Translations under genes and position numbers: made by a program | Notes under the pieces: generated by a model | What the model was told of the DNA's origin: nothing | The model's input: the letters and a program-made list of their open reading frames with translations, nothing else | The model's database searches: none | Part shown: positions 3,786 through 64,000 of the stretch, piece after piece | How the letters are laid out: every line of letters starts with the position of its first letter | Numbering within the stretch: the stretch's first letter is position 1 | Assembly: GCA_050230475.1 (NCBI GenBank) | Contig: JBFLGF010000043.1 | Location: forward strand, 1 to 64,000 | Direction of reading: 5' to 3' | Source of the DNA: Ancylonema sp. | Taxonomy: Eukaryota | Length of the DNA stretch: 64,000 bases

Positions 3786-4886
3786 TAGGGTTGGCGACAC
3801 CGCCCTACCGCCCTACTCCCTACCGTTTCACCGCGGTAGCTACCGCGGTACCTACCGATGCTCAAATATGCAGTAGGTAGAGTTTGCGACACCGCCCTAC
3901 CGCCCTACTCCCTACTGTTTCACCGCGGTAGCTACCGCGGTAGCTACCGATGCTCAAATATGCAGTAGGGGGTAGGGAAATTAGCCCACCCGCGGTCGGC
4001 TCGGTAGGGGGTAGGGCGGTAGGAAATAATCGGTAGGGAACGGTAGGGAACGGTAGGGATCGGTAGGGAACGGTAGGGAACAGTAGGGAATCGAATATTT
4101 CCGATACTTTTTTTTTTTTTGTTGCAAATTATATCTTTGACTTTACGCTGGAAAAAAAAAACCCTACCGTTTCCTACCGCTCCCTACCGTGTCCCTACCG
4201 ATTTCCCTACTTCCTGCCGCCGCCCTACCCCTGACCGATGCCCAGCCGGCATGTGTCGTTATATCGAGGTGTCGTTATACACTATATAACGACATTTACC
4301 ACTAGAATCTGATATCTATGTCGTTGTATCGAGGGACCTTGCGAATGAAGAAAAGTGAATAAGCAAATGTGTTTATCGTGTGTTTCCTAGAGTAAGTTGC
4401 CTTGGCATGATGATTAAATTCAACGTTTGTATTGATATACGAGCTATACAAGTGTGCGTTATGATACCAATACATGCGGATGGACAAAATATACCACAAA
4501 ATTTTACGAGGAGATTTGGGGAGGTATTAAGGTTGTTACAAAGCAACATTGGACACGCACATTTCGTTGGACCTAGATAGAATTCTAGACAGAATTGGGG
4601 TGCCGTTCTATATTTTTATCGATTTCCATACATCGTTATCTGCGAGCAATGGCGTTATATGCAGAGTATAACGACATTCAGTAACATTTTTTGGATTTTT
4701 TTGGTCATTATATAGAGTGTCGTTATGCTCATATCGAGGGCGATTTCATATTGATTTCAAAAAAGTTCAAAAAAGCTGTCGTTATACCGAGGTTGTCGGT
4801 ATATCGAGGGTCGTGATATCGAGGGAGCACTGTACAGTGGTAGAAACCCCCTACCGCGGGCCGAAAATGCGGTGTCACCAACCCTA
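3786..4886. mobile_element. Non-autonomous hAT-like DNA transposon (TAGGG TIRs) containing a nested element
   Basis: Left TIR tagggttggcgacaccgc (3786) matches right gcggtgtcaccaacccta (ends 4886). Subterminal ccctaccg/cggtaggg arrays. TSD degenerate (ctgcaatc vs cttgcgat). Confidence 0.75.
4254..4832 (-). mobile_element. Truncated Tc1/mariner (pogo-like) non-autonomous element, inverted copy of the 11921-12761 family
   Basis: Terminus gatatcgagggagcactg followed by TA (4833-4834). Internal sequence is the reverse-complement homologue of 11921-12720, with an internal deletion. Confidence 0.8.
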
Positions 4887-11535: not shown

Positions 11536-11920
11536 TGAGGCGGTTAGCATTGACTGAAGTAGTTTCTTTCAGTTTATTTAGTTTTTATATACTTTCTCAT
11601 CGCTTTGGTAACATGTTCGCATTAACTTTTTTGTGCCCATTGTAGTTGGAAGGCGGTGATGTGCAATATTGAAGTCAATATTTCTCTAAACTCGGATTTC
11701 CAAAGTTTGCCTCCTAAGGTGCAATCGTTGCCATTTTTACAAGTGCAAATCATAACGCCATGCGAAACTAAAAACGGAAAAAATGTATTTGGCTACACGC
11801 ACAATAAATAGTTCACTTTCTCCATCCTATAAACTACAAGTTGTAGTACATAACACTTATGGACAATAAGTTATGGGTAAAAATAATTATCTACGCCGCG
11901 ATGTTTCCACGATGATAGTA

Positions 11921-12761
11921 CAGTGCTCCGTCGATATAACGACCCTCTTTGTAGCGACAACCTCGATTTAACGACAGTTTTTTGGAACTTTTTTAAAATC
12001 TATATGAAATCGCCCTCGATATAAGCATAACGACACTCTATATAATGACAAATTGTTTTAGATATTTGTTAATGAATGTCGTTATAGTGTGTATATAACG
12101 ATATTAGTCGCAGATAACGATGTATGGAAATCGAGAAAAAACTAGAAACCTCATGAACGACACCTCAAATTATTTACAACGTGTTCTAGTTGTTTCCAGA
12201 TATCATATCAAGAGGACGCCGCCTCTGTCCTCCTCGGATGGTCCAGATTTAAGCTCTTGTATATGTAGCAGCAGTTCCTCGTGGGTTGCGAAGCACTCAC
12301 AAGTTACACTCATTCAATGTTAACGTTAACAACTGTTAAAAAATGCCCAAGTTGTTCATTGTTCCAATCGTCCACTGCTTCTACTCCATGTCCAACAAAA
12401 AGTGCGTGTCCGGTGTTGCTTTGTAACAACCTTAATAGCTTCCCAACTCTCCTCGTAAAGTTTTGTGGTATATTTTGTCCATCCGCATGTATTGGTATCA
12501 TGACGCACTTGTATAGCTCGTATATCAACACACACACACACACACACACTGAATTGGATAATCATGCCAAGGCAACTTACTCTAGGAAACACATAATAAA
12601 CACATTTGCTTATTCACTTTGCTTCATTCGCAAAGTCCCTCGATACAAGGACAAAGATTTCAGATTATAATAGTAAATGTCGTTACACAGTGTATAACGA
12701 CACCTCGGTATAACGACACTTTATTGGGGGGACAAAAAGTCGTTATATCGAGGGAGCAATG
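11921..12761 (+). mobile_element. Complete non-autonomous Tc1/mariner (pogo/Tigger-like) element
   Basis: TIRs cagtgctccgtcgatataacgac / gtcgttatatcgagggagcaatg; TA on both sides (11919-20, 12762-63). Confidence 0.85.
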
Positions 12762-13999: not shown

Positions 14000-14134
14000 G
14001 GGGATCACAAATCAGCATTCACAATCGCGAAAACCGAGAGTGTACAATACTTGTATGACTTATGCGGACCTATCATTGATATATAATGTGTTCCATTATG
14101 TTTTAAGAAACGCCTCTGTTTTTTTTTCCCCCCA

Positions 14135-14310
14135 CCGCCGTCCCACCGGTCCAACCGCCAAATAATGGCGGTCGGACGGCGGAATCGCGGCTGGACGGCG
14201 GAATCGCGGTCGGGTGGCGGAAACCCGGCCGGGTGGCGGCCGGGGCGGGCGGAGAAGGTCGGCGGGCGGCCGACCGCCGACCGCCACCGATTCTGGCGGG
14301 TGAGGCCCAT
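14135..14310. repeat. GC-rich MITE-like remnant (family of 11170-11535)
   Basis: Reverse-complement similarity to 11281-11400. Confidence 0.45.
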
Positions 14311-15289
14311 ACTTTTGGGCTCTGGTGTTCCAAGCTGCCTTTTTTAAAACAACATACAAAAATTACAGAGCTCTTGTTATAAACAGAACATTAGTGGTTT
14401 AACAACATCTATTTTTAAGAATGTACTGTCAAACTGGTGGGCTGTGTTAATGCTACTATGGTGCAGCCAGAGCCGAGAAAACCACAAAACACCACTTTCT
14501 TTTTTAAGTTTTTTTTAAGTTTTTTTTTTTTTTCCCGGTAAGGGGTAAAAATGAAAGGCATTTAGTCGACAAGAAGCGTGGGTGTTTCCAATGCTGGTGT
14601 TTCAAGGCTGTCGTACCTATATCGATCGTGTACGGCTACACGTGCAAGCACTACACCGAATAGGCACACCGTACACATCGAGACTATAACAAGGTCCACT
14701 CGACCGTACAAGCTAGTACATAGCAAGGCCATCTCTCTAGGCACACTCCGTACTCGCAAAACCGCGCCTAGACGGCATGCAGTTACCGAGCAGCGCTCCC
14801 CATCACCGCGCCTAGACGGCATGCGGTGCCGCAACTTGTACGAACACAACGCGCTTCAAATTAATGCTCGCTCCCCCCCCCAAGACGGGGAAAAACTCCC
14901 GCGACCCCGGCTTGGTAAATCACCGAGAAAATTTGTGTTTGATCTGCACTTCCCATCATTGCCAACTACCGTTTGCACAATGGTTAGAACACCTACTCCT
15001 CCAAGATATTGGTGGGTTTGGGGTAGCTAGCCCCTCACCCCACACTTATCTAGAGGAGTTGGTCAAAAATCACCCACCAAACAAGTTCCCGCAAGTTTAG
15101 TGTGTTACCACCAAAGGATTCACCTTTCACCTTTGGTCTCTAGGCCTCAAAAACTTGATTGAGCCGTTGCGCCTCATGCGCCAACCTCCTCTCACTTCTC
15201 AATGTTTTTATTGACTTAGTGAATTGAGGTAAGGTTAGTGTCACACTTCTCATAGAAGTTGACCAATCACACTTCCTGCAAAGTTGATT

Positions 15290-15630
15290 ATTGCCCCTCA
15301 TGGAGGTCTTCAATGCCTCCGGCAAAGGCATCAGCCAATCCATTGCATAATTGCCTCTCATAGAGGTCTTCAATGCCTACGGCATTGACACATGTCAATA
15401 CATTGCACTTGCCCCTCATGGAGGTCTCATGCCCCTCATGGAGGTCTTATTAGATACCTCCGGCAAAGGCGTCAGCCAATCCATTGCATATCTGTGATAT
15501 GGTATGGAACACCATTATCACCATCTCATGCAATGTGTCCGATGTTTCATTGCATGGTTCCGATGTGGGGTTCAATGCTCTTTTCATACAATGGTTCCAT
15601 TGTTACATTGCATGGTTCCGATGTAGAGTT
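15290..15630. repeat. Direct repeats in the 3' non-coding region of the DNMT-gypsy element
   Basis: tgcc(c/t)ctcat(g/a)gaggtct occurs 4 times; cctccggcaaaggc.tcagccaatccattgcata twice; ttgcatggttccgatgt twice. Confidence 0.85.
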
Positions 15631-15662
15631 GTGACTACTTCACTCTGAAATAAGTAGCTCAC

Positions 15663-15800
15663 CTAGTGTCGAGGACAAGTCCAGCTCCCTCCGGCACTCC
15701 TAGGGTGGTGTTAATTGTCAAACACCACGTGTGATACCCCTGGTTACATTTGCCGCACAGCACCATCCGCTTCGGGACCGCAACCCACAAACCCGGCAAT
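15663..15800 (-). pseudogene. PHD finger at the C-terminus of the retrotransposon integrase (two frameshifts)
   Basis: Joined reading HCRVCG.../KRMVLCGKCNQGYHTWCLT...GVPEG/WTCPRH*; PHD ligand spacing plus the conserved Trp. Confidence 0.85.
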
Positions 15801-17164
15801 GTATTGTTTCCCCGCGATCATACAACTCCGGGTAGACCCTCTTGTCTCCCACCGGTACAGTGCAGTGATCAATGTGCTTCACCTGCTCCTGCATCGTCGT
15901 CCCATCTCTACCCCCAAGAACTGTTATCCGTGAGTCTCTAAGCTCCACTATCCTCAAGATGTGTGGCCTCGTGTTGACCTCCAGGGAGCTAGCCGTTGGC
16001 CGCTTCAGCAGCACGAAGTCTCCAACCTTGAACTTCGCCTATGGCCTATCCCACCCTCCTCCACGGACTAGCTTGTATCTCTCCACCTCCCTTTGCTGGG
16101 CAATCGCCAGGTTCCTGAATGCCAGTGGCAGAACTTCCTGAAAGATCTGGCCCCTCCTATCTAGGAACACTTTCATGGCCTCCACCCCTTGAGTCATCAA
16201 AGACTCTCTCCTCCTCGTCCCGGATTCGAGCCTGAAAGATCGGCTCCCTTCCAAAAAGCATGAAGTATGGCGAGTAGCCTAGCGACTTTTGCTTGGACAG
16301 CCTGTAGCCCATAGCTACGGAAGGCAATAGTTCATCCCACTGCTCCCCACCTCCCTCAAGCAAGCACTTTTTGAGTGCTTTCTTCATTGTCTGCACCATC
16401 CTCTCCGCCAGCCCATCTGACTGCGGGTGATCCCTGGCTGCAGTCCTGTGAGTGATCTCATAGCGGGCCAGGAGTGTCTCAAACTCTCCTCGAAACTCAC
16501 TACCCTGATCTGTGATCATCTCCCCTGGTGCGCCATACCTGGACAAGATCTGAGACTTGAACTAGTATGCCACCTCTGCGGCCCTCTTGGAGGTTGTTGG
16601 GATGAGCTCCACCCACTTGGTGATTAGCTGTATGCACACCAGTACATATCTGTTCCCCCTCTCCGTCTCCTCCATTGGCCCCGCAAAGTCTACCCCCCAT
16701 CTATACATAGGTCCCTTGATGGGAAGCGGCCGAAGGTTCTTCCCAGACTCTCTAAAAGCAGCCTTGCCCCGAGCGCAACTCATACACTCCTTCACCACTT
16801 TCGCCACCATCTCCACCATGCCTCTCCACCAATAGGTCTTCCCCAGTAGGTATGCTACTCTCATGACCCCAAAGTGGCCCATCTCCTCATGCACTTCTTT
16901 CACCAACCCCTCCCTCTCAGGCGGTCTGGGGATCACTAGCATCCTCCCTTTCTCTCCCACCTTGTACAGGCTGGTTCCCAGCCACCTGTACTTGGTCCCC
17001 CTCCGGTACACCCGATCTCTCTTCAGAGCATCCCACTCCTCACTGTGCTTGCCAGCCTGCAGGTACTCCAACAAGTGTGTGTCAGCCCACACCTCTCCTG
17101 AGGCTGCCTCGGTGGTCTCATCCACTTTCTCCTGTTCCCCCACTCCTAATGCCATCATGGCCAA
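15801..17164 (-). pseudogene. Ty3/gypsy integrase (disrupted)
   Basis: HEEMGHFG...CMSC zinc-binding motif; WGVDFAGP, ITDQGSEF, GLAERMVQ (D,D35E); in-frame stop at ~16562 and frameshifts. Confidence 0.92.
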
Positions 17165-17219
17165 TAGAGTCTCAGGTCGGAAAGTGATATCACCCCGCTC
17201 TCAGTCAGGTACCTCAAGT

Positions 17220-18650
17220 CCTCCCATGGAATCTATGGGGAACTTGGAAAGGCAATCTGCGTTGCCGTTCTCTGCGCCTGCCGTGTGCTCCACCTTGAAG
17301 TCGAACTCTTGCAGCAGCAAAGCCCACCTCGCCAGCTTCCCGGACAACTTCTATGTCGACAGGATCCACTTGATTGGCTCATGGTCGGTCACCAATGTGA
17401 ACTGGTTTCCGATCAGGTACTGCTTGAAATGTGAAGTCGCCCACACTGCAGCCAAGCACTCCCCATCAAAACTATAATAGTTCTTCTCAGTTGGCTTGCA
17501 ACTTCTGCTGGCATAAGCCACAACATAGTCCAGCCCCCGCTCGTCCTTCTGCCCCAGGACTGCCCCCATCCCCTTCTGACTCCAGTAAGTAGCAAGGTAG
17601 AAAGGCTTGCTCCCATCTGGTCGCCTCAACACCCCAGCCGAACACAGCGCCTCCTTTAGTTTAAAAAAGGCCTCCTTTTGTTCCCCCCCCCACTCCTAGA
17701 CCTCTCCTTTCCACAACAGCTTGTTAAGCGGGAAGGCAATGGTGTTGAAATGCGGTACAAACTTGCGATAGTAGCTGAATAGCCCCAACGCCCCCCTTAG
17801 CGATGACAAGTCTGTAGGTGCTGGCAGATCCCTGACTGCCTTCACCTTCTCCTCTTGCGGCTGCAACCTTGCCGCAGTGAACCTGTGCCCCAGGAAATCG
17901 ATGCTCTCTACCGCAAACAGACACTTCCCTAGGTGCACCTTCAACCCCGCTGCTCTGAGTCGTCTCAAGACCTCTTGCAAGTGTCTCAGATGCTCCTCCA
18001 GTGTGCTGCTCCACACAATGATGTCGTCCATGTAACACCTCGCAAATGTCAGCCCCCCCAGAATGTGGTCCATCTGGCGCTGAAAGTAAGGCGGCGCATT
18101 CTTCAGTCCGAACGGCACCACGCACCACTCCCACAAGCATCCGCCTGGCTCCCCATAATGCTATCTTGGCACTGTCCTCCTCCACTAGTGGCATCTGATG
18201 GTACCCTCACCTCAGATCCACCTTGCTGAAGATCTTTGCCCCCTTCATGTCATCGAATATGTCCTCTATCAATGGCAGCAGGACTTGTCGAGTGGCGTCA
18301 ATGCGTTGATTGGCCGGTAGTCCCCGCACTTTCTGAAGTCAGTTTAGTTCCCCTCATCGTCCTTCTTCTTCACCACCACAGTAGCCGAAGCATACTTGGT
18401 CTGGACTGATTTCCTGATGAACTTTAGCTTCTCCAGCTTCTCGCACTACTTCTCCACAAACTCCCACTCTTTTTCCCCGAGTTTGTGCGGCGGCCTGTAA
18501 ACCCTCCCCTCTAACACCACCCCAATGCTCATTGGCTCTACCTTGAACTGCTCCAGATCCTCCATGCTGTAAGCAAATCGATCATTGTTCTCCCTCAGCA
18601 GCTCCAACACCAGCAGCTGGTCCCTTTCCTTTAACCCCCCCCAACCTTGA
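17220..18650 (-). pseudogene. Reverse transcriptase and RNase H (disrupted)
   Basis: FAYSMEDL, RPPHKLG, CGDYRPIN, VPFGLKNAP, CYMDD, IDFLGH. RNase H LATYWS (Asp to Tyr), GECLAAVWA, VTDHEP, ADCLS. Confidence 0.93.
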
Positions 18651-19779
18651 TTTTCTTGAAATTCTCAGAAAAAATAGGTTTTGGGTTTGAGATCCTACCC
18701 TTAGTGCTCACTCCTACCCCTTAATTTTTTTTACCATTCCCCCCAAACTCCCTCTATAAATCTTTTTTTATTATTTTTTTATGATTTTCTGAAGTTTCCA
18801 GTTGGGCCCCAACCGCCCCATCTCCAACCTCCCCCAACCGCTGCCTCCCCCCCAGAACAGCCATCTGCAGCTCTGCAGGCCTCAGTTCTACTCCAAATTC
18901 AGATTGCAATAGTGATATGGATAGCTCTTCCCCCCCTCTATGTTGTGTCAAATTCATGATATCCCCCCCCAAAACTCTTGACTGCAAACGCAAATCTTGG
19001 ATTTCAGATTTGGCCAAATCCAATTTACACTCAGAGTAGCAAAAAGGGCTGAAAATCTTTGATATTGAGTTTCTGAGTACATGGGGTAGCTTTTTGCAAA
19101 TCCCTACCTTATCCTCACTACCAGCTCGAAAACCTGCTTCTGGTTCCAAAACCCTAGGGTTTAACAGCTCTTTTTCTGAATTCTGAACAGAATTTTTGCC
19201 TTTTTGGCTGCCTGAGCTACCTAGCTCTCCTGGGCTGCACGATTTTCAAAATTCTGATCTGCTTAGTGATCTTGGATCCTTAGCCTCTTCCCTACCAGAT
19301 CTCAAAATTACAATTTTTTTTGGCCGGAGGTTCAAAATCGCCCCCTCAGCTTCTCCCTCAGCTATTTTTTTGTCGGGTAGGCAAGCTGGCAATGAGAAAA
19401 GCTGCCCTGATCTGCCCCCTTTGATTCTGGCTGCACCCAGCTATTTTCCTGGTTTTTCATGATGGCCTCTAGCTTTTCCCAAAGTTTCAGCTTCAGAATC
19501 GAAGTCTAGCAGCGCCTGCACCACTTTTTGTGCCTCCACCATCTCCCCTTCCCCTATGAGTCCAGCATACATTCCGTATGCTGGAGGGCTTTCCTTTTCA
19601 AATTCACTCCTATGGTTTTCACCATTGATATCCTGAGCTCCCCAGCTCCATTTCTGTGTGCCTTAGCCAGTTGCCCCCAGCCGCGCCCCAACCGCACCCT
19701 CCCGCAGCCCCACCTGGGCTGCGGCTGCCCCCCCCAACCCCTGATCTTTTCGGGGTTGGGTGGCAGCGCCTCCCTAGCT

Positions 19780-20780
19780 GCTCATGCTGGCTCCCCACAG
19801 AGCCCCCAGCCACCTCATGGTGTTGCCTTCCATGCACTTTCCTAGCCTCTCCGCTCGTTGTTTCGAGGAAACTCCCTCCGCCCGTGTGGTCCCCTCCGGG
19901 AACCCCAGCAGTTGCTCCTTCTCACCCACATCTGGCTCCTCCCACCTGAGGGTGTTGGTGTTGTACACTTGCCCCTCCCCTGGGTTCCCATCCTCCTGAT
20001 TTCGGAAGGCATAACTCCCCTGAAAGCTGACAATCCTCGGCATGAGGATCCTCTCCTCTCCCCGAAAATTCTTCACGACCTGAGGCGAGAAGTCGGTGAG
20101 TGTGCCTTGGGGATGTGATACTCCCTCAAGATCTCCCTCAACGGTGGGCTTGGGTGCAGATCCTGTGGAACTGCCTCCTGTAGTTCATTCCGGTCCATGA
20201 CGTTCGTCCAAAAATAGCGCAGCCGATGGCTGGCTGCTCCCAACCCCCCGGCGTCCATAACCACCCCCAGTCCAATGAAGGACTCTATTAGCCGTGCAGT
20301 CTTTTGCACCGACTCAGGCATCTTTGTCAGCTACCCGGGGTAGGTGTTCTCCAGAAAGTAAACTGGCGATCTGTCGTGGTGATGCTGCAGCCACCCAAGG
20401 ATGCGCACCAGATCGTAGAAATACTGGAATTGCCTATCGGCGTACCCCTCCTGCTTGCCCCCCCGGCTGATACTCTGGCACTCCCAGCCAGCCCCTAAAA
20501 TGTCCACCTCCCGGTTCTGCGCAATAAGGTTTACCAGCGCCATCTCCCCAATCAGCCCCACATCTTGTGGCAACCTCTTCTCCCAACCAATAAATGTCCC
20601 CCTGTTGATCGGGCCTGGGTATTCGAGGATCAACTTCTCGATCACCCCCTCGTTGATCCGGTTGGAGATTGGGCCCCGCTCGGCGCATGACACCAGCCGC
20701 ACCCTCAATCCTGCCGCCAAGGCTGCTCTCGTGGCGCCCAAACCAATAAAGGTCAACAATATGCACCCCCTCCTCCGCTA
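19780..20780 (-). pseudogene. DNMT3/DRM-like DNA cytosine-5 methyltransferase domain embedded in the retrotransposon pol region
   Basis: Ordered motifs: I VHIVDL/IGLG (frameshift ~20750); IV DILGAGWECQSISRGGKQEG (Cys codon 20478-80); VI YFLENT; VIII AASHRLRYFWTN; IX EKEQLLGFPEGTT; X RAERLGKCM. Confidence 0.9.
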
Positions 20781-21585
20781 CCTCCTCCTTCAGGCTCACG
20801 ACCCTGGTGTTAATTGGTGCTGCACCTCTCACTGCTGCCCCCACCCACTTCCGGGATCTTTGTGTTTTTACCTTTCCCAGCAAGCTCTCTCTCGCCTTCA
20901 ACAGCCTCAAAGCTGCCGCCACCCGACGTGCTGCATCCGCCCGCCGCACTTCCACCACTCGCAGATCTGCCTCACTAGGGGCTCCAGTCAGCTCCCCCAA
21001 CCGCGGTTGGGGCTGACTTTGCCGTGTGCCTTTCACAACCACCCCCCCCACCATCACCCTGGGGTCAGGTTGCACCACCCTCGTGTGCTTCCCCCAGCTC
21101 TGAATCTCCCCCTCCTCGCCCATTCCCAGCATCTGTTGCGGTTGGGGTTCCAACCGCGGTTGGCCCTCCTCCAACCGCAGTTGGGCGGTTGGCCCCCCCT
21201 CCCTTGGGCTATCTCTTAACTCTCTGACCGCCATGCCCTGAAATTTCTCCCAGGCTTCCCCATTACCCCCCCCATATCCCTCCTCAGCCCACCCCGGACT
21301 TTTTCCACCCATCTCCTCCTCCGGTAAGAGGTTGGCCTCATCGAGCGCCACCCCTCGAGCTATTTCCCCCTCCATATCCCACCCTCGTGTCGCCTGCTCC
21401 TCCATCTGCTCCAGCAGAGTGAGCAGTGCCAGATTCTGCACCTCCCCTTCCCACTCTAACTTCACCACTCCCTCACTCTCACCCCTTCCCATATCCCCCT
21501 CCTCCACCTCTTCCGACTCGTAAGAATTGTCGCACTCCGCATCCTCAAACTGGCCCTCCTCAGCCTCTGAGCTGTAGAGGTCAGA

Positions 21586-23229
21586 CTACATCTGAACCTC
21601 TCCCGACCACTCCCTCTGGATCCTCCCTAGTGCCATGGCCTGCATTGGGAGTGTTGAGCGCACTGCCCTGCACTCCTCCTCAGTCATCCTACCCTGTGCC
21701 GGTAAAACCCCTCTGATCTTCCCCCCCCCCTTAGCCGCTGAGCGATGGTAATCGACCCTCCATGTGAAGACCTCAACCCGTGAGTCATAAACCCCCCCTA
21801 TTGGTCCAATCACCTCTATCCCCAGTAGTATCTCGTAACACTCTGTGTCTACTACGAAAGCTACCTCCTCGTAAGTGGTTTCGTAGCGTGTTCCAGCAGC
21901 AGAGGTAACACGCAGCTTTTCCTTGGTCATGCGCTGACCCGTCGCCATCTTCCCCGCGGCCGTAACAAATGACACCCCCACTGTCATATGTTCCTCTGTG
22001 AGCCCCATACGCTTGGCCATCCAAGAGCTAATCATAGGTTTTGTAGCCCCCGAATCCAGAATCACCATTCCCAATGGTGATATGTCATTCACCACCAACT
22101 CCCTATTTTTCACTGGAAGTGTAGCCACACTCCAAGGCCCCTTCTTCCCCCCCCCGCCTACCCACCCTGCGTGTAATGGATCCCCCTCCACTAACGACCT
22201 CAGCCCCCCGTACTGATCCATATTTTGTTGTAAAACCTCTGCTTGTAGCCCGTGGAAGTTTCTTTCTAGGGTTTTAAATTTCTCTGCCAGCATGTTTGCT
22301 AGCAGCTCCCCTTGTGTTCCCAACCCCCTCCCCATGATCTGAATCATCTTTGCCTGGTCTATGATTGCCCCTGATTCAGCCAGCTTTTTGAGATCCCGTA
22401 CCACCTCCAACCTCCCCGTCATAATTGGCATCGTCTCTGCAAGTTTCCCGTCGAGGTACTTGCTGGCTGCCTCTAGTTCCACCAGTCTCTCCCTCTCGTT
22501 GGCACTATACACTACTTCCTGTATCCCCTCCTCCGCCACCTCTATCGAAACTGGTTCTCGGCCGTATCTGCCGTACTCCGCCCGCCAGTCATAGGATCCA
22601 AACTGCAAATCTGCTGCCTCTTGCAGCGCTCTCCCCAGTGCAGTGTCCATTCCCGGAGGGTATCCCATAGGGACCCTCACAGTACTACTCTCCCCGACAA
22701 ACCCTGCTAGCGGACCTGTCGCCATTGCTGATGGTGGAGTTGTCACACCCGTGACACTCATCCCCGGTCGGATCTGAACTGCTGGCCCTCTATCCGCCCC
22801 CTCAGTCGGGTACAAAATATCACGCGGCTGAGTGTTGTGTGCGAAGATCACCCTCCTAGGTCGCCCTGGGCCCCTCCTCTCTGCCGCCGTTGCTTCCGCC
22901 GCACGGGCCCCAGCTGCTTGCACGGCCCTCTCTGCTGCATCTTCCTGCTCCAAACGCCGCCCCACGTTTTGGATCGCACGCCTCAAATCAGCTGCCCCCG
23001 GAGATCTTGGTCGTGTTCCCCCTTGAGCTGCACCCGCACTCTGGGGTCCCAGCCTACCCGCCAGGATGCTACCCTCGTCCCTCTCCGTGCTCCGCAGCCT
23101 CTCGGAAGCGCGCACGGGTCCACCACTCTCTCCCCCAGACCGCCCTCCCCGCGCGCGTGGCGCCATCATATGGAATGGTGGCCTGACGTGCACCATTGGC
23201 GCGTCCATGACAACCCACATCTCCCCCAC
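21586..23229 (-). CDS. Retrotransposon ORF segment containing the aspartic protease
   Basis: 547-aa ORF with VILDSGATKPMIS and the downstream YEILLG motif. Confidence 0.85.
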   Translation of the reverse strand: MGEMWVVMDAPMVHVRPPFHMMAPRARGGRSGGESGGPVRASERLRSTERDEGSILAGRLGPQSAGAAQGGTRPRSPGAADLRRAIQNVGRRLEQEDAAERAVQAAGARAAEATAAERRGPGRPRRVIFAHNTQPRDILYPTEGADRGPAVQIRPGMSVTGVTTPPSAMATGPLAGFVGESSTVRVPMGYPPGMDTALGRALQEAADLQFGSYDWRAEYGRYGREPVSIEVAEEGIQEVVYSANERERLVELEAASKYLDGKLAETMPIMTGRLEVVRDLKKLAESGAIIDQAKMIQIMGRGLGTQGELLANMLAEKFKTLERNFHGLQAEVLQQNMDQYGGLRSLVEGDPLHAGWVGGGGKKGPWSVATLPVKNRELVVNDISPLGMVILDSGATKPMISSWMAKRMGLTEEHMTVGVSFVTAAGKMATGQRMTKEKLRVTSAAGTRYETTYEEVAFVVDTECYEILLGIEVIGPIGGVYDSRVEVFTWRVDYHRSAAKGGGKIRGVLPAQGRMTEEECRAVRSTLPMQAMALGRIQREWSGEVQM

Positions 23230-24363
23230 TTAGAATCCCAGTTCCACTCCATTTACATCACCCTTTTCAGCCACCCCCATTGCCAACATCTGACGTGGGT
23301 ATCGAGGGCTGAAGAACTCCTCATCTCCCCTTCCTAGCCTGTCCTCAAACTCAGCAGCCCTCCTCCTTGGTGGCCCTGGCACCGCCATGGCCAACCCCTG
23401 ACGTGGCCGCTTGGCATCACGTGTCCCCCCCTGGGTTGTAGTTCTTGGGGCGAAGCTCCGGGTGCTTTGCCCAACTCTGCGACTCGGTGTGGTTCTGTTT
23501 GTCCCAGAAACTGCATGTTGCCCCCTCCGTCATGTGCACCCGTGGCATGGACATGGTCACCCCTCTCGCCGTCCCAAATCTGGCGGCGAAGGGTGCTTTC
23601 ACACCCTTACCACGTCCCGCTGCTGCCGTCTTGAGTGCCTCCCTCAGCCGCCCCGCCGTCTCCTCCCGCTTCCCTGTGGGACAGTTCGCAGCTTTGTGCC
23701 CCAGCCAGTCACAAGTGAAACACTTGACAAGAGTTTCCCCCCCCAGCCCTCCTCCTCCATTCCCTCCACCTCCACTCCCAACTCCTCCTCCTCCTCCTCC
23801 AATCCCAGATCCCCCCCCTCCTCCTCCTTCTCTTGGCTTCCCCTTCCCCTCCACCCTTCCCCCTCCCTCCTTTTTCCCCTCCTTCTGACTTGGCAACAGG
23901 CCAAACATCCGCAGCTCCGCATCCCGCGACATCTGCGCCCTCTCGTGGGAGGTGGCAATGTCTCTGATATCTGCCATACTCATCTTGGGAAGTCCTGCTC
24001 CATCCCGGCGCTGCTCTTCAGCCCGAAGCTTTGGGCCTACCACCCGCCGCAACCCTCCCGGCAAACAATCCTCATAAAAACACGTTGTCTGACGAGCGCT
24101 GACCATATGTGGAACGAGGTTAACAGTTATCCGGGACAGGTCCTCGTAGATGGAGTTTGCGGTAGCTCTTGCTGCTGGTCTGAAGTTCTGGAACTCCACT
24201 AACCATTCCGACCCCGCGGTTGCAAATCACGTCCTCAACCTCTGGAAGAATCCCTCGAGATCGGCTGTCTCTGCTTCCGGAGGTACTGCTGGAGGCTCCT
24301 GAAGTCCTAAGGTGAGTCGCATCAACTGCCAACTCGCCTTCTGACCATAGTATACGCGCCAGA

Positions 24364-24822
24364 TGTCAGGACCCTCGCTACAGTCACTAGGGCTCCCTAG
24401 CGAGGTCTCCACACTTAGCGCTATAGCGCTACTAGCTCAGTTTTCCCTATAGCGAGGTCTGTCCCTATATAGTGGGAGTTGTGTCCCTAGCGGCCGCCTG
24501 GCCCCTAGGGAGTATTCTGATGTGTCCTTAGCTCAGGAAGTTGTGCCGTTAGCCAGAGTTGCGCCGTTATCCATACCGTATTCAGAGTGAGTTATCCCAC
24601 TTGTAGTCTTGATTCAGACTTGAGCCAGTTTACTATATATAATCCATAAGAATGCCTTAAGAGCATTCCTATCAACTCAAGTACTTGCACTCCGATTTAT
24701 ACCACCACCATTTCACTCGGCTCACGCCATCTTGCCCTATCCGGCGTTTCGCCATCCTTTTGCTTATGTGCACATTGCGCGACTAGCTTGCTAGGGACGT
24801 CTTTTTGCATCCGTCCCTAACA
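24364..24822 (+). repeat. 5' LTR of the chromovirus (459 bp)
   Basis: tgtcaggaccctc...cgtccctaaca; direct repeat of 29448-29897. Confidence 0.95.
24634..24642 (+). promoter_or_regulatory. Putative LTR TATA box
   Basis: TATATATAA starts 32 nt upstream of the PBS-complementary 10-mer at 24666. Confidence 0.6.
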
Positions 24823-24824
24823 CT

Positions 24825-24834
24825 TTGATAGGAA
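24825..24834 (+). other. Self-priming-type primer binding site
   Basis: TTGATAGGAA lies 2 nt after the 5' LTR and is the exact reverse complement of TTCCTATCAA at 24666-24675; no TGG tRNA-type PBS is present. Confidence 0.75.
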
Positions 24835-24918
24835 CTTTTTTTGAAGTTTTTTTTTAGAATATTCTGAAATTGAACTTCATTCAGCCGCCTTCTTTTTCAT
24901 CTTACACCCATCCCACCA

Positions 24919-27900
24919 TGTCTTCTCCCAATTTAGACGAAGTCATGGAAGTCTTACGCCAGATGCAACCACTCTCAAGATGAAAAGTCCAGAGTTTTGG
25001 CGGATGAAAACAAGGAGATTAAAGGCAAATTTACAGAGCCTTCGGAACAGTTTGCTTATGAAACTAACTACATGGCTTCTACAATCGAGCCAGCCGCTCC
25101 ACAATATCAGCCTATCTCTACTCTCCAAGACCTGGTTCCATCTGACCCTCCTAAGTTTGATGGTACCTCCAAGCATGTCACTACATTCCGTAACCAGGTC
25201 CGCTCTGCTCAGGCTGGCCCCTAAGGTTCAGCAACCCGGTTTAAACCGTTCACTACGTGGCCAATCTACTATGAGTGGTTCTCTAACTGGACCTGCCTAT
25301 GAGTGGTTCTCTAACTACCTCGACGACAATGGGGACCTCCCGGACGGGTTTGGGGCAGTTCGGCTGCTGAAAGATCTCCAGGACTGCATCGGGGAGGACG
25401 ACACTCGCCTCACCAAAGAACGACACCTGCGCGAGCTCAGGCAAACGGGTTCAGTGTTAGACTTCACCGTCCAGTTCAGGGCAATTGTCAAGACTTTCCC
25501 CCCTTGGCCTGACCACCCCAGCATCTACACCTTCGAGAGATACTCAAAGTACAGGACCCCCCTGAAACTTTCTCTGACTACGTTACCTTTGTCAAGAAGG
25601 TGGAGAACAGCATGGCTGCCAGCAGGCTGGACCGACCCTCCAAACCTGCATACATCCCCCCCCAGGCCAGAGCTGCTGATCAGTCTCCCCAACAGGTCCC
25701 CTCTCTCCTGCAAATCGTCCCCATGGACATCGATGGAACCCGCCGCCAGGTCCTGAAGGTGGAACCAACTGAGATGGCTCGCCGCGTGGCTGGTCACTTG
25801 TGCCACTACTGGCCTGCCAGGTCATGACACTAGGACTTGTCCCAACAAGGGCAAGCCCCGCACCGTGCCCTTCTTGGATCTGCAGCCAAAAAACGACCAC
25901 CCCACACAATCCTAGGAGGGGTCTATGCGGGTCCCCTTTCCCTACCCTCCCCCTTTCCCCACCCCCGCCAACTCCTGCTGGCCTGCCAGTTACTACGGTA
26001 CCCACTCCCACCCATACCTGTCAGGGTGTTGATCGACTCCGGGGCATCCGGCAACTTCATCGATCCCCAGATCCTGGCAGACTACAACCCTCCCTACCCA
26101 CCCCCATACCCAGCCTATCCCGGTCGAGCTCATTGATGGCAGCCCTCCAGCTGCTGGCCCCATCACCTCCTACTTCTCAGCCCAACTCAGATCCCCAGGC
26201 AACCACACAGAATCCATTAGTCACCCGACTGGCGCACTGCCGAGTCACGTGGGCGTCTTGGGCTTCCCTTGGCTGCACAAGCACAACCCCACCATCAACT
26301 GGCAGACGGGCACCCTGTCCCTCACCAGCCCCCAGTGTGCTGCTGAGTGCCTGCTCTCCAGTTCTATCCCCCCACCCCTTCCCCCTCCCGATCCCCAGCC
26401 CCCACTTGCAGTGTTGGACGCTGTGCAAACTTCTCCAGACCCCGCCCTGTTAGTTGCGCTACCTCCGGAGTACCACGACTTCGCAGACGTGTTCTCTGAG
26501 CAAGCTGCAAACACCCTTCCCCCCCACCCGTCATACGACTTGGCAATCCCCCTCCTGCCTGGCAAGGAACCCCCCTGGGGGCCGATCTACTCTTTGTCTG
26601 AGCTTGAGCTGGCTACGCTCAAAACGTATATCAAAGACAACCTGGCGAACGGCTTCATCAGGCCGTCCACCTGTCCGGGCGGGGCTCCTATTATGTTCAT
26701 TAAGAAGCCAAATGGCAAGCTCCGGTTATGTGTAGACTACCGGCAGCTCAATGCGGTGACAATCAATAACCGTTGCCCTCTACCCCTCATACCTGAGCTG
26801 CTGGATCGCCTGCATCGCGCAAAGATCTTCACTAAAATTGACCTGCGAAATGCCTATCACCAGCTGCGGGTCAAGGAGGGGGAATACAAGACCGCGGCGT
26901 TCCGCTGTCGTTACGGGCATTTCGAGTATCAAGTCTGCCCGTTCGGGCCGACCAATGCCCCAACAGCCTTTCAATCCTTTATCACGGACGTGTTTAGGGA
27001 GTATCTGGACGTCTTCCTAGCAGGCATGCTCGACGACATGATCATCCACTCGGAAACCCCTGAGGAGCACGTCTCCCACGTCTGAGCAGTCCTGGCAGTC
27101 CTACGGAAGCACACGCTGTATGCGAAGATGGAGAAATGCTAGTTCCATGTGGACACGATCAGCTTCCTAGGCTACCGGATCTCTCCTGCAGGCGTGCAAA
27201 TGGACCCCGCAAAGCATCTCTCCTTGACTGGCCACTTCCCCAGTCAGTCAAGGAAATGCAGTTCTTCTTGGGCTTTGCTAACTTCTACCGCAAGTTCATA
27301 GCTACTCTACGGTGGCCTGCCCCCTTACCTCCCTGACCCGCAAGGGGGCCAAGTTTGAGTGGATGAAGCGGAGACAACCTTCCACGCACTCAAGGCGGCA
27401 TTCACCACCGCGCCTGTCCTGCGACACTTTCAGCCATCCCTCCCCCTTACCATTGAAGCAAATGCTTCTGACTTCGGTCTGGGCTGTGTCCTCTCCAAGA
27501 CGGACGAGGCACGCGAGCTCCACCCCCTCGCCTACTACTCGCGGAAGTTTTGCGCTGCGGAATTGAACTATCCTATATATGACAAGGAGTTGTTGGCGAT
27601 AGTGGCTGCCTTCCGCCAGTTGCGGGTCTACCTCGAAGGTGCAGCGCATCCTATCGTGGTCTACACGGATCACAAAAACCTCGAGTACTTCCAGCTGCGA
27701 GGACGACCTCTAGGAGGCATGCACGGTGGGCCGAGACGCATGGCGGCCTACGATTTCTCTATCATCTACCGGACGGGGTCCAGCAATGGCAAGCCGGACG
27801 CCCTCTCCCGCAGACTTGACTGCTTGCCGCCAGCCCAGCTCCCCCACCCTATCCTTCCCGATGCAGCTATTTTGCCTATTCCCCCTCTACGCGCTGCAGC

Positions 27901-29440
27901 TATCCTCTTGTCCCCGTCTGACCCACTCCTACCTACCATCAAGGAGGCTCAGTTGGCGGACCCAGCTCTTCAAGCTATTGCTACGGACCTGCTAAACAGA
28001 CCTGCTCAGGAATCAAACCTGAGACCACCCTCAGGCAGGTCATCATCCCTCTACACACTCCGAGAGGGCCTACTTTACCGCAGCGGGCGCCGGGCGATTC
28101 CCCCTACTGCTGCTCTCCTCATACTCGAAATTCTAAAGCAGTATCACGATGCGCCTATGGCAAGCCACTTCGGGACGGCACGGACGCACGCGCTGCTGGC
28201 TTAGTATTTTTACTGGTCGGGACTGTCTAAGGCGGTGGAAGACTACGTGCGCACATGCGACGTCTGCGCCCGGAACAAGCCGGTGCGCCACGCGCCATAT
28301 GGCCTCCTATCCCCCCTACCTATCCCTGAGCAGCCCTGATCTAGCGTGTCCCTCGACTGGATTACCGACCTCCCTCCTAGCGACTACCACGATGCTATAC
28401 TGATGGTGGTGGACCGGCTCACCAAACAGGCGCACTTCATTCCAACCACCAAATCCATGGCGGCACCTGAGGTCGCTGCATTGTTTCTCCAACAAGTGGT
28501 GCGCCGGCACGGGTTGCCGTCTAGCCTCATCAGCGACCGCGATCCCATCTTCACCAGCCATTTTTGGCGTCGGCTGCTGGAGCTGTTGGGCATCCATGCC
28601 AACCGCTCCACTTGCTTTCCACCCGCAGACGGATGTCCAGACGGAGCGCCTCAACTCAGTCCTGGAGCAGTACCTGCGTATTTACATCGACTAACAACAG
28701 TCTGATTGGGCGAGACTTTTTCCGATGGCGGAGTTTGCTTATAACAACTCCAAGCATTCCGCCACCACCCTCTCCCCGTTCTTCACCAACTACGGGTTCC
28801 ACCCGCGAATGTCGCTGCTTCCCCCCACCCCCGATTCCCCAACCCTTGCGGCTGACGATTTCGTCAAAAATATCCACGACGCTAACGATGTCATCCACGC
28901 GGCGCTCCACCAATCTCAGCGCGCCATGGAGACGTCTGCCAATCGCAAACGCAAATCTACCCTGATTCTCGTCCTAGGCCAGAAAATTTGGCTGTTACGA
29001 CGCCACGTCGGCTCCACCCGTCCTTCGTCAAAATTGGATGTCCGTCGTCTGGGCCCTTTCCCGGTGATTGGCCAGATCGGGACATCGGCTTACCGTTTGG
29101 AGCTGCCGTCCTCCGTCAAAATCCTTCCCGTCTTCCACGTCAGCCTCCTCGAGCCACACACTGCCAATACGTTTTCAGGCCGTGTCGTGGCGCCTCCTCC
29201 TCCGGTCGTGGTGGACGGCGAGCCTGAGCATGAGGTGGCCACGGTCCTCGATTCCAGATCGTGCGTGGCAAGATCTTTTACTACGTGGATTGGGTCGGGT
29301 TCGATGAATTTGAGCGCTCTTGGGAACCTGCGAACCTGCCGACAACATGGGCAATGCTGCTCACGCGGTCGCAGAGTTCCATGCCACATTTCCCGATCGG
29401 CCTTCACCGCCTCCTTCTTCGCGTTCCGCGCCTTGAGGGG
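24919..29440 (+). pseudogene. Chromovirus gag-pol (gag, PR, RT, RH, IN, chromodomain) with multiple stops and frameshifts
   Basis: PPKFDG, ELRQTGSV, LIDSGASGNF, LGFPWLHKHNP, LRLCVDYR, MLDD, NYPIYDKELLAIV, SLDWITDLP, SDRDPIFTS, VFHVSLLEP; chromodomain HEVATVLDSR/YYVDWVGF..SWEP. Confidence 0.93.
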
Positions 29441-29447
29441 GGGGTAC

Positions 29448-29897
29448 TGTGAGGACCCTCGCTACAGTCACTGGGGCTCCCTAGCGAGGTCTCCACACTT
29501 AGCGCTAGAGCGCCACTAGCTCAGTTTTCCCTATAGCGAGTTCTGTCATATAGTGGGAGTTGTGTCCCTAGCGGCCGCGGGAGTATTCTGATGTGTCCTT
29601 AGCTAAGGCACCTTAGCTCAGGAAGTTGGTTATCCAGACTTGATGTGTCCATACCGTATTCAGAGTGAGTTATCCCACTTGTAGTCTTGATTCAGACTTG
29701 AGCCAGTTTACTATATCTAGTCCATAGGAAGGCCCTTAGAGCATTCCTATCAACTCATGTACTTGCACTCCGATTTATACCACCCCCATTTCACTCGGCT
29801 CACGCCATCTTGCCCTATCCGGCGTTTCGCCATCCTTTTGCTTATGTGCACATTGCGACTAGCTTGCTAGGGACGTCTTTTGCATCCGTCCCTAACA
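29448..29897 (+). repeat. 3' LTR of the chromovirus (450 bp)
   Basis: tgtgaggaccctc...cgtccctaaca, preceded by the PPT and followed by the TSD. Confidence 0.95.
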
Positions 29898-31554
29898 CCA
29901 GACCACTCTCACTACTTCCACCACTTGCGCTATTGCCAGTGCTGGGTTGTCAGGGTCATGCGGGTCAATGGACCGGCGGTAGTCATCCATAACCAATCTT
30001 GCCTGCCCCTCTACGTGGCCAGACATCCGCTTGAGGAACTCAAACTGACCATATTTCCCACTAAGGAATTTCTGAAGATTCCGCTTCTCTGCCTCCCACA
30101 TATCTTTCATATTCTGGATAAATTGTCGCTGCGCCACCTCTCCTCCTCTTGAATACTTGGGCACAGCCAAAGTACTTTCCATCTCTGCCTCCTCCTCTAA
30201 CCCCGCGAAATGCACCAACGAATAAGCTGCACCCACAGGTACCGGCGGTACAAAAACCGGTGGTTGATATACGACAAGCTGAAAATTCTGCACTTCGGCC
30301 TCTCCCTCTGAGTTTGCCGAACCTTGAGGGTCAACTGGTCCTGCACTAGAATCAGATATATTGCTTGACGATTCACTACCACCCCCGCCTCCCCCACTAT
30401 CCACTCTCCGCACCAAACGTCTCTTCTCGTCGCGGGACCAGGCAGACATGGACTGCCTGACTCAGAATGAATCTAAAAACTACCACCTTGGGTCGTTCAA
30501 ATTCAACTACGCGCTGGAAATCTCACGAGTATCAGGTGTCAATAATTTTACAAGCGTAGCATTACGCCAGAGTAAACGTACTGGGCAAGATATATAACGC
30601 TGTCTCTGGACGCGTCGAACGCACTATCGTACGCAGCAAATGATCACCGCTACAATATTCAGCATCCGCTCAATGATATCAGCCTTTAACATCGCCGTAG
30701 TCAAAGCTCAACGTACTCACAAAACGACACGTCACCGCTCTTGCCAAAGATTAGTTGGTATGCACTCTGGCGTAATGCAGCCAGAGTGCTCATGCATCAG
30801 GATACATAGTCCGAAAGTCCAACAAGACACTTCCGGCTCACTTGTACTTTCCGTACGCTAGACTATAATCTACGCCGTACGCATGCGTCCGATCGGATGC
30901 ATCTAGTCCAAGCATATCCTACCCAACGTCGCAATCACTAACGATCACAATCGACCAATCACATTCATGCCAGCATGGCACTATATGACCCCACAACCCG
31001 GGAGCCGGACCCGACCACGTTTCTCTGGAACGTCCCGTGGCCTGACATCCGCTATACTGAACCGCAACCAAAAGTCAAACGGGTAGTAACTATCCCTCGG
31101 TACACCAATCGAAGATCGATCGCTCTATCGAACAATTAATATTCCGACGGGCCCCTGCGGGCTCCCGCCCGCTGCCGCTCTATCGCGAACAAATAAATAA
31201 CCCAGCCCCCAGCCGCCTACCGCCCTACCGCAGACCCGCATGCTAGCGGCGTCAACCGTACCCGGGTCAATACCCGGCCGGGACCGTACGGCACACTACG
31301 TGCCGCACGTGCAACTGGAGTAGGTATGGCAAGGAATTATTTCTTCAAAATGAGAAGGCAGTTTTGTTTTTTTTTTTTTTAAAGGCCAAAGGGCTCACTT
31401 GGTGTTTGAAATAGCTTCGGTCGTCTTTTCTTTTGATGTTGAACACCAAGCCAGTAAACAAGTTGTTTACTTCTTTCTTCTATTGGTTCTTGTTGTTTTT
31501 ATTCTTCCCAAAAAAGAAGAAGAACTCAACCTTTTTTGAATTTTTGGCCTTTCA

Positions 31555-31755
31555 ATTAGATACCTTTCAATTAGTATGGTTTTCATCAAAAGTAATTCTT
31601 TTTTTGTTTGCATATGTTTGGGTGCGAGCAGCTTTTCCAAGATATCGTTATGATCAGCTTATGTCTATTGGATGGAAGGCTCTTTTACCTTCATCATTGG
31701 CTTGGGTCGTTTTTGTTTGAGGAGTGCTCGTTGCTTTTGATTGGTTACCTAAAAA
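31555..31755 (+). pseudogene. nad1: Nuclear copy (NUMT) of the mitochondrial nad1 3' end
   Basis: [60 protein letters not shown]-rich; in-frame TGA at 31718-20. Confidence 0.88.
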
Positions 31756-32705
31756 AAAACTATACAGAACAACTTTTTTTTGGGCCCTAAGGGCTCTTGG
31801 TGGGCTCGTGAATCACGAGCCCACAGAGCCAATCATGCCTTATGACTCCGGAGCCCGTTGACTCCAAAAATCGTGGGCCTGTCGGGAGCCCGAGCCCGTC
31901 CGCGGAGGCTCAAGAGCTCAGAGCCCGTGGGGTCCGGACGCGCGAGGCCAACGCCGGTGTGGTATAAACGCCCGCAACAAAGAGCGAGACATGGAACCCG
32001 CCACTATGCAGGTCGAGCCTACAGCAGATCTGCGCCACTCACCTTCGCCGCCCGCTCCTGCTTGTGTGACTGGCTGTGAAGAAGTGTTTTCCACCAGGAG
32101 CGCGGGACGGAGCAAGTGCCTCGAGTCTCTGGCAATTCAGTAGAGCGGCTCCTTGAGGTTGCGCGCTAGACACGGCAGGATACATGCAGATAAAAAATTG
32201 AGGCATAGAGGTGTTGTCCAGACGGCAATAATATGGCACTTTGTGCGCAATGTCCATCGCTGGGCCTTCTGAATACGCATCCTGCATGTCGTATGCGGAT
32301 CAGGAGCAAGCAAGGAAGTAAAATATTATGCCAACAATCCAAGATTTTTCCGAACCTCTCACAACTCTCACTCTCACAGGTATTGAAATGCACAGGAAAT
32401 ACTTATAATTGCTTTAGCTGTCCATTTTAGCTGCCTTCGCTATCTTCTGATTCAGGGGCATTCCACAAAGAAATATGGCCTCTTTCTACAATCCTGATTG
32501 ACATCTTGTTTTCCGAACTGCGGTTACATTCGGTTTCCACAGAGAGTACCAGCTGATTCGTGTTTGTGAAGTGTTCTCCTTGCCTTTAATTCGTTATTGT
32601 GCGTTGTCATGGGATGTGTTGCCACATTTGCCGCATTTTGACCGTACCTAGTAGGTAGTACCCTCTGGGAATGTCAGACTCGTTTCGCTGAAGAGATTTC
32701 GTCAG

Positions 32706-33738
32706 TTGTCTCCCTTGCAGCACATAAGGAAAGGGTTCGAGGATCTTACACACAGTGGCAACACAGGGTCGGGGTTGCTTAAAGAGTTATCTCGTAAAGC
32801 ACTCACAAGAGGCCGACTTTCACCGTGCGGAGATACTGTTCAGAGAGTCGGCGTCGTCTGCAATTCGTCATCTTCACAGTCTGTGTCGAGTGAACCCGAT
32901 ATTGCACCTAAGGAGTTGTTGTCACGATTTCCTTGGAAGGAGCTCGCTAGTAAAGTCACAGAGAAGGTGGAGTCGCTTCTAGGGAGTGGGATCAAGTGGG
33001 TCGCCATCCCCTTCTTCGCCATTGTTCTGTTTGCGGAATTTACCTACGCCTGGAGAGAAGGAAAAGCCCTACTATTTGTCATCGGGATAGTAACTGGGAG
33101 CTCCCTGTCGACTTTGCTCAGTGAGATTTACGAGGAGTTTGCCACCAAAGCTCAGGTAAAAGTCTTGGACCTCATCTTGTGCTGCGCTAGACACTACAAA
33201 TCTACTAATGATACACGTGTGAGCTATACACGAAAGTTGTATTCGACGCATGTGGCAAGTGGTGCTGCGCTAGACGCATACCGCAGTCCAATCTGAAGGG
33301 CATGGCTGCGCGCGTGTCTGCTTCATACCTTTCACATACCTCGCCCATTTTTTCACTTCTGTGATCCTCACCATCAGCATTCGCCTCACCTGTTATTTCT
33401 TTAGTGGCCGTCCACAACAACACCCGTCAAAGTGAGAGCATGACCAGTTCGTGGCGTATTGTCTCATAAAGGGATGTGTTGCCATTTCGGGTGTGCTTGA
33501 TTCTTGGATCTTGGGTGTAACTTACGCACATCTAGCGTTCCGTTCATATCCGCAGGTTGGTGGATTTCCTCTGCATGTTGCTGCCATATTTCTTCTGTTT
33601 GCAGCCTTGAAAGCCCCCGGCTCAGCATATCCAACAGCTTGGCTGCGAGTATTGTGTCCCGCTATTGGGACCGGTGGGCTGTGGAAAGCTGCCCTGATGC
33701 TATTGGAAAGCAGGAGGACAACTTCAATTGCAAAGTAG
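32706..33738 (+). CDS. Uncharacterised plant-type multi-pass membrane protein (possibly plastid-targeted); start not located
   Basis: Exons ~32706-33155 and 33556-33738 join in frame across a GT-AG intron; Ser/Arg-rich N-terminal part followed by several hydrophobic segments. Confidence 0.55.
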
Positions 33739-51854: not shown

Positions 51855-55543
<3,689 letters not shown>

Positions 55544-63979: not shown

Positions 63980-64000
63980 CTACACAGCTCAGGCCATGGT

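Follow-up and report, generated by a model that had tools for sequence, protein, structure and literature searches.

The window, a stretch of 64,000 nucleotides, carries on its minus strand a decayed retrotransposon whose domains, identified with Pfam and frameshift-aware alignment, follow the order gag, protease (PR), DNMT3-like cytosine methyltransferase (DNMT), reverse transcriptase (RT), RNase H, integrase and PHD finger (Table 1). The gag-PR-RT-RNase H-integrase order and a DDE integrase, whose DDE residues are retained in this copy, identify the element as Ty3/gypsy, as the original prediction from the sequence alone had proposed. The window's host genes are spliced; among them are a short-chain dehydrogenase (38899-39303), an FtsH/M41 protease (51858-55573) and ribosomal protein eL18 (63000-64000). 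The eL18 protein is closest to plant-type eL18 chains, and the host is likely to be a streptophyte alga.

Table 1. Features of the DNMT-bearing element and of the element nested in it, listed from the 5' end of the minus strand.
Feature	Position	Strand	Evidence
gag, 5' part, from likely start codon	29903-30450	-	ORF; 26/84 identical to gag region of intact relative P0235, score 96 versus 26-39 (five shuffles)
Nested unrelated Ty3/gypsy LTR element, complete, inside gag	24364-29897	+	LTR pair TG..CA, 418/437 aligned bases identical (95.7%); 5-bp target duplication on both sides
gag, 3' part	23417-24358	-	Alignment to P0235, 76/263 identical, one stop
CCHC zinc knuckle in gag	~23678-23725	-	Pfam zf-CCHC E 0.0087, below cut-off (weak)
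Aspartyl protease	21811-22092	-	PF13650 E 3.2e-7, PF13975 E 1.8e-6
Acidic linker, in a frame shared with protease and DNMT start	20818-21740	-	Stops per frame: 1 in 323 codons versus 16 and 16
DNMT3-like C5 cytosine methyltransferase domain, broken	19801-20817	-	Pfam, frameshift-aware alignment, family profile
Motif IV, G-W-E-C-Q; catalytic Cys (20478-20480) after Glu, not Pro	20475-20492	-	ORF reading and alignment
Motif VI with catalytic Glu	20340-20354	-	Alignment to P0002
Motif VIII with both Arg (Arg-x-Arg)	20208-20231	-	Alignment to P0002
Spacer between DNMT and RT (1.1 kb), decayed reading frame	18660-19773	-	5 stops per 371 codons in the DNMT frame, against 18 and 27 in the two remaining frames
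Reverse transcriptase and RNase H, broken	17351-18652	-	RVT_1 E 3.9e-21, RT_RNaseH_2 E 5e-31
Integrase (H2C2, DDE core, C-terminal part), broken	15810-17200	-	Integrase_H2C2 E 4.8e-14, rve E 9.6e-4
C-terminal PHD finger, frameshifted	15666-15805	-	PF00628 E 1.5e-5 on 15662-15772; alignment to P0002
3' non-coding region	14609-15660	-	Contigs depart from window sequence at 14609

Structure and decay of the element

We are confident that the window holds one dead copy of a Ty3/gypsy retrotransposon that is multicopy and that encoded, in the PR-RT interval of its polyprotein, a DNMT3-like cytosine methyltransferase. From RT to the PHD finger, frameshift-aware alignment to the intact relative P0002 gives 570 identical residues out of 988, with eight stops and five frameshifts, and RNase H has lost one catalytic Asp; the copy is therefore dead throughout. 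Both the linker upstream of the DNMT and the spacer downstream of it keep the frame of the adjoining DNMT end, as expected of a single decayed polyprotein. The nested element encodes gag, RT, RNase H, integrase and a Tf2-type SH3 domain (Pfam), and its insertion into gag makes the DNMT element the older of the two.

On its 3' side the element likely ends at about 14609, where 44 contigs of sequencing run X1 diverge from the window and have flanks unlike one another (agreement 0.38). Comparison of the 3' region with the rest of the window revealed neither an LTR pair nor a split repeat for the DNMT element, the local score being within the shuffle range. No target-site duplication was established for this copy, whose 5' end was not located and may have been lost. 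A candidate terminal inverted repeat (~31331 and 14609) was rejected, since 33 of 2,000 shuffles were as good and other 60-mers scored higher. No tRNA was found, and Rfam gave no match in 14000-33000.

Within the 3' non-coding region, short repeats of 47-60 bp (15287-15630) vary among sister contigs. Summed contig depth over 14500-15486 is two to four times that over RT, an excess that may reflect many truncated or non-autonomous copies with a common 3' end. The CpG observed/expected ratio is 0.30-0.71 in the coding parts, compared with 0.76-1.01 in the flanks, although one host exon also has a ratio of 0.67, so that we drew no conclusion from this difference.

The methyltransferase domain and its motif IV

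The original prediction had joined four minus-strand ORF pieces (20331-20759, 20073-20321, 19774-20076 and the end of 20434-21507) into one C5 methyltransferase of DNMT3-like class, with motifs I, IV, VI, VIII, IX and X in order, and had described it as intronless, on the strand of the protease and RT, and inactivated by frameshifts and a stop. The pieces lie at these places, and the description holds on each point. The piece 20331-20777 matches Pfam DNA_methylase (PF00145) with E 6.2e-5 and 23 bits against a cut-off of 22; the two downstream ORF pieces give no Pfam match individually. With the stop read as X, 20076-20744 matches PF00145 at E 1.3e-5; its PDB matches include HhaI (E 5e-4) and DNMT3A (E 0.2). 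Frameshift-aware alignment to P0002 spans 20817-19801, with 143 of 338 residues identical and a score of 688 versus 31-39 for five shuffled proteins, and requires exactly two frameshifts (~20742 and ~20086) and one stop (20331-20333). It places motifs I, II, IV, VI, VIII, IX and X in the canonical, unrearranged order, unlike that of DRM enzymes, thereby adding motif II to the predicted set, and no introns interrupt the domain.

Several features had escaped the original prediction, namely the nested element that splits gag, the PHD finger at the end of the integrase, damage to motif I (the SAM-binding loop) by the first frameshift, and a motif IV without Pro. The catalytic Cys of motif IV, the Glu of motif VI and the Arg-x-Arg of motif VIII are all present in the window copy, and the Pro-Cys dipeptide of motif IV is absent from it, with Glu-Cys in its place. 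To our knowledge, Pro before the catalytic Cys is near-invariant in C5 methyltransferases.

A profile built from 33 relatives and searched against the PDB (57 matches) ranks DNMT3A first (E 1.3e-21), with 3C and 3B next; DRM-type enzymes (1.4e-16 to 6e-13), HhaI (1e-9) and DNMT2 (about 1e-5) rank lower, and neither DNMT1 nor DNMT5 is among the 57 matches. The domain of L005, a relative that has the DNMT between RNase H and integrase and thus stands outside the window's clade, was modelled with AlphaFold (pLDDT 96.2, pTM 0.93). Foldseek with this model returned DNMT3B/3A first (best E 1.2e-18, target TM about 0.8), and all 33 rows listed were DNMT3 chains. On profile and fold ranking, the domain appears closer to DNMT3 than to DRM, DNMT1, DNMT2, DNMT5 or bacterial enzymes. 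The catalytic domain of mammalian DNMT3A/3B, the best match in both comparisons, has motifs VI, VIII, IX and X of the same type; identity is nevertheless ~20%, and the window family differs in reading Glu-Cys for Pro-Cys, in having no PWWP or ADD domain and in being encoded by a retroelement.

In an alignment of 69 relatives, most of which share 27-55% identity with its first row, 66 retain the catalytic Cys, 68 the Glu, and 63 and 66 the two Arg. Motif I is likewise conserved among the relatives that cover those columns (Phe 41/46, Gly 45/48). The conservation of the catalytic residues points toward purifying selection on the DNMT. Of the 69 aligned relatives, 47 have Glu and 16 have Pro before the catalytic Cys; among the 94 rows of the DNMT tree these counts are 62 and 16, so Glu-Cys is a family trait rather than a product of decay in the window copy. 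Pro-bearing rows are scattered among Glu-bearing ones, which requires at least five changes on the tree, and their grouping as one clade was rejected (AU p 0.0008, on a quick LG+G4 tree and with the test picked after the tree had been seen). This position of motif IV therefore switches freely, like a tolerant site in a working enzyme.

Relatives, sister copies and two architectures

With the integrase ORF as query, 15 proteins matched at E 1e-20 or better; PF00145 was present in 3 of these and a PHD finger in 13. The P0002 DNMT returned 8 proteins, and the whole-library search gave 460 proteins at E 0.001 or better, 150 of them listed. The original prediction had taken the DNMT to be part of the polyprotein and had looked to intact copies with a continuous PR-DNMT-RT ORF for confirmation. 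Six non-redundant proteins provide it: P0002, P0008, P0231, P0232, P0234 and P0235 are single intact ORFs with the order PR-DNMT-RT-RNase H-integrase-PHD, some with gag ahead, and the window DNMT is 39-42% identical to theirs over about 340 aa. The DNMT is thus cargo of the family and not a one-off insertion, and we encountered neither a failure to match C5 methyltransferases nor sister copies of the element lacking the domain. Fourteen RT proteins without a DNMT on the RT tree are not DNMT-less elements but ORFs or fragments beginning after the place of the DNMT.

Closer to the window, six short sister fragments are 85-90% identical to it. Four of them (P0217, P0068, P0071 and P0074; 85-88%) stay open where the window's DNMT is broken and jointly cover all three breaks, the evidence at each break being a protein fragment of a single sister. 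Named relatives among 28 clusters come from Mesostigma viride (one) and Closterium (four), and the Closterium proteins have the window's order; no Klebsormidium nitens protein was present among the relatives in these 28 clusters, which were checked by name. A scan of metagenomes yielded five loci from 84 matches, every one with the DNMT between RNase H and integrase. When longer proteins were searched for words of the 148-aa piece, none of 848 candidates was retained, and a scan of IMG/VR with P0073 gave three pattern matches, none of which was confirmed.

A domain that is broken in the window copy could also be a retrocopy of a host DNMT3 that had landed by chance in one element. Such an origin is refuted by the intact polyproteins of the same order, by the sister fragments that read across the breaks and by the frame kept in linker and spacer on either side, and we consider it extremely improbable. 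Contigs argue in the same direction, as those of runs X1, X2 and X3 cover the DNMT like its flanks (30 of 30 bins of 14500-24350) and contig pieces span both DNMT borders, among the joints listed (15 of 128). In X1 the summed depth is 35,600-41,600 in DNMT bins versus 28,000 and 49,000 in the neighbours, a sum over contigs that gives no copy number; X1, X2 and X4 come from one sample, which may be the source of the window.

Among 173 proteins with a DNMT match, the domain lies before RT or right after the protease in 19 and in the RNase H-integrase interval in 51, while 103 are too short to place. On the DNMT tree, which excludes 8 redundant rows and all domains shorter than 250 aa, the two architectures are one change apart, across a branch with an SH-aLRT of 99. 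On the RT-RNase H tree, which has 51 rows after exclusion of 15 redundant ids, the second architecture forms one side of a branch with support of 97, and the window joins the P0002 clade at 98. Since both trees split the two architectures, the DNMT has been inherited with RT. The simplest reading of these trees would be one capture and then a later move of the DNMT; they carry no rooting on reference DNMTs and do not give the direction.

Three of the loci with the second architecture (L003, L004 and L005) have two long ORFs that overlap or abut. The assemblies of L003 and L004 are circles of 13.6 kb whose ends fall inside ORF1, and in L005 another ORF, of 794 codons, follows pol.

A PHD finger follows the integrase in 32 of the 34 proteins long enough to tell. 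Among solved structures, it is closest to the PHD fingers of CHD4, KMT2C/D, BAZ2A/B, ATXR5 and KDM5. Trp two places before the His of a PHD finger marks H3K4me3 readers. Of 59 family sequences, 57 could be read at this place; all of these have Gly or Ala, and none has Trp, which points to the family PHD as a predicted reader of unmethylated H3K4.

Known elements and the role of the enzyme

We compared the family with published elements, in the portion of each source available to us; besides the works cited below, the comparison took in PMC6338049, PMC12344493 and 10.1101/2021.11.30.470311. That the class has precedent, as the original prediction had stated, is borne out: KnitGypsy-Dnmt3 of K. 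nitens, published in 2018, comprises gypsy elements with a DNMT3-related domain (de Mendoza et al., 2018; PMC5890265). Like the window family, it has an intronless, unrearranged DNMT3-related domain in a gypsy Pol ORF, catalytic residues that are kept and, probably, a green streptophyte-like host. The published text, in the portion compared, gives no domain order and no motif IV sequence and has no occurrence of PHD (0). KnitGypsy-Dnmt3 is further characterized by Ka/Ks below 0.2 on the DNMT and by a DIRS-like repeat arrangement, which was not found in the window copy. Nor were DIRS-like repeats present in three metagenome contigs with the DNMT between RNase H and integrase, in which assembly may have collapsed repeats. 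We conclude that the window copy is a fossil and that it adds a new member to the streptophyte Gypsy-DNMT3 kind; that it belongs to KnitGypsy-Dnmt3 in the strict sense is unproven, because the repeat arrangement of the latter was not found in it.

Two other groups resemble the family more distantly. SymbioDIRS-Dnmt3 of Symbiodinium also combines a DNMT3-type domain with RT in Pol, with two domain orders coexisting, but these are dinoflagellate DIRS elements with a tyrosine recombinase, whereas the window family has a DDE integrase, a protease and a PHD finger. EpiLTRs of Cymbomonas and Euglena (bioRxiv 10.64898/2026.05.21.726589) are likewise LTR-type elements with a cytosine methyltransferase and a chromatin reader; according to the part of the preprint compared, their DNMT is sister to DNMT4 and they have a DAM domain and a chromodomain, in contrast to the DNMT3-like domain and PHD finger of the window family. 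Pfam scans of the window element gave no match to DAM or chromo domains. Chlamydomonas transposons commonly carry PHD fingers as accessory domains (PMC8557442, in the part compared).

Retroelement-borne DNMT3 is thus a rare kind known since 2018, to which the family may add Glu-Cys, two DNMT positions and a C-terminal PHD finger. Neither Glu-Cys in motif IV, nor the two positions, nor the spread to Closterium and Mesostigma was found described in the literature searched, which covered few subscription papers, and a near-universal C-terminal PHD in DNMT gypsy elements was not found in print in that literature. Many natural domains of the family are intact, some with Glu-Cys and others with Pro-Cys, and they occupy two polyprotein positions, so that the activity and substrate of the enzyme and the part played by the motif IV Pro are open to direct test. 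A DNMT3-like writer together with a PHD reader would mirror the logic of DNMT3-ADD within a selfish element.

Our best joint explanation, with a probability of roughly 0.6, is that the window holds a dead copy and that intact elements use the enzyme to methylate their own newly made cDNA; on cDNA methylation taken by itself we would put about even odds. The original prediction had likewise suggested methylation of the cDNA or of new insertions, which stays an inference. The polyprotein would enter the particle, with the protease there either releasing the DNMT or keeping it attached to RT. The DNMT would then methylate cytosines of the cDNA, probably at CG, in cis during synthesis. The PHD finger on the integrase would anchor the complex to H3 tails that lack K4 methylation, and the pre-methylated copy would enter non-promoter chromatin. 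The benefit could lie in evading a host that recognizes or edits unmethylated cDNA, or in a lower cost per insertion. DNMT3-type sequence and fold and the near-invariant catalytic Cys, Glu and two Arg of the family support this proposal. Against it would speak the Glu that stands in place of Pro ahead of the catalytic Cys, both in the window and in 62 of 94 tree rows, as well as the yeast result with the K. nitens domain given below and the negative search for an LTR pair in the window copy. In the part of the 2018 article compared, the authors propose cDNA methylation for their DIRS elements, and de novo CG methylation in yeast is reported for the SymbioDIRS-Dnmt3 domains, the only ones for which CG activity was found (PMC5890265).

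The enzyme may instead act after integration, at the insertion site or on the host genome, with the PHD finger bringing integrase and DNMT there and the element silencing or marking itself. The presence of DNMT and PHD together in 32 of 34 sufficiently long relatives fits such a role, as does the position of the DNMT next to the integrase, and not RT, in 51 of 70 classifiable relatives, from which it could travel with the integration complex. RT and RNase H nevertheless separate the DNMT from the integrase in the window's architecture, and the K. nitens methylome is plant-like with no element-driven change evident, in the portion of the report compared (PMC5890265); we consider action after integration unlikely. 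It is also conceivable, if quite unlikely, that the Glu-Cys site alters the chemistry or role of the enzyme, which would then bind or trap cytosine-containing nucleic acid, modify genomic RNA or form a product other than 5mC. Glu-Cys is indeed the majority state, and the only published yeast test of a gypsy DNMT, that of K. nitens, detected no methylation, a result that its authors call inconclusive (PMC5890265, in the part compared). Yet the family conserves the SAM loop as well as each of the four catalytic residues, and the free switching between Pro and Glu described above is at odds with changed chemistry. We retain methylation of the element's own cDNA as the preferred reading. A wider proposal is more tentative: a large and old green-algal gypsy clade may combine a DNMT3-like writer with an H3K4me0-type PHD finger, have shifted the writer between two Pol positions, have no ordinary LTRs and use its Glu-Cys enzyme to methylate cDNA or for other chemistry, none of these traits being described in the literature compared.

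The window also contains repeats away from the element. A long inverted repeat (4253-4835 and 11918-12719) consists of four segments that are 84-91% alike, and the ~7 kb between its arms hold a spliced RRM splicing-factor-like gene, labelled by eye. An 8-bp satellite occupies the window start (1-120), followed by a 34-bp tandem repeat (473-642). At 43839-44749, an 83-bp inverted repeat, 81% complementary and with its arms 745 bp apart, is MITE-like in size.
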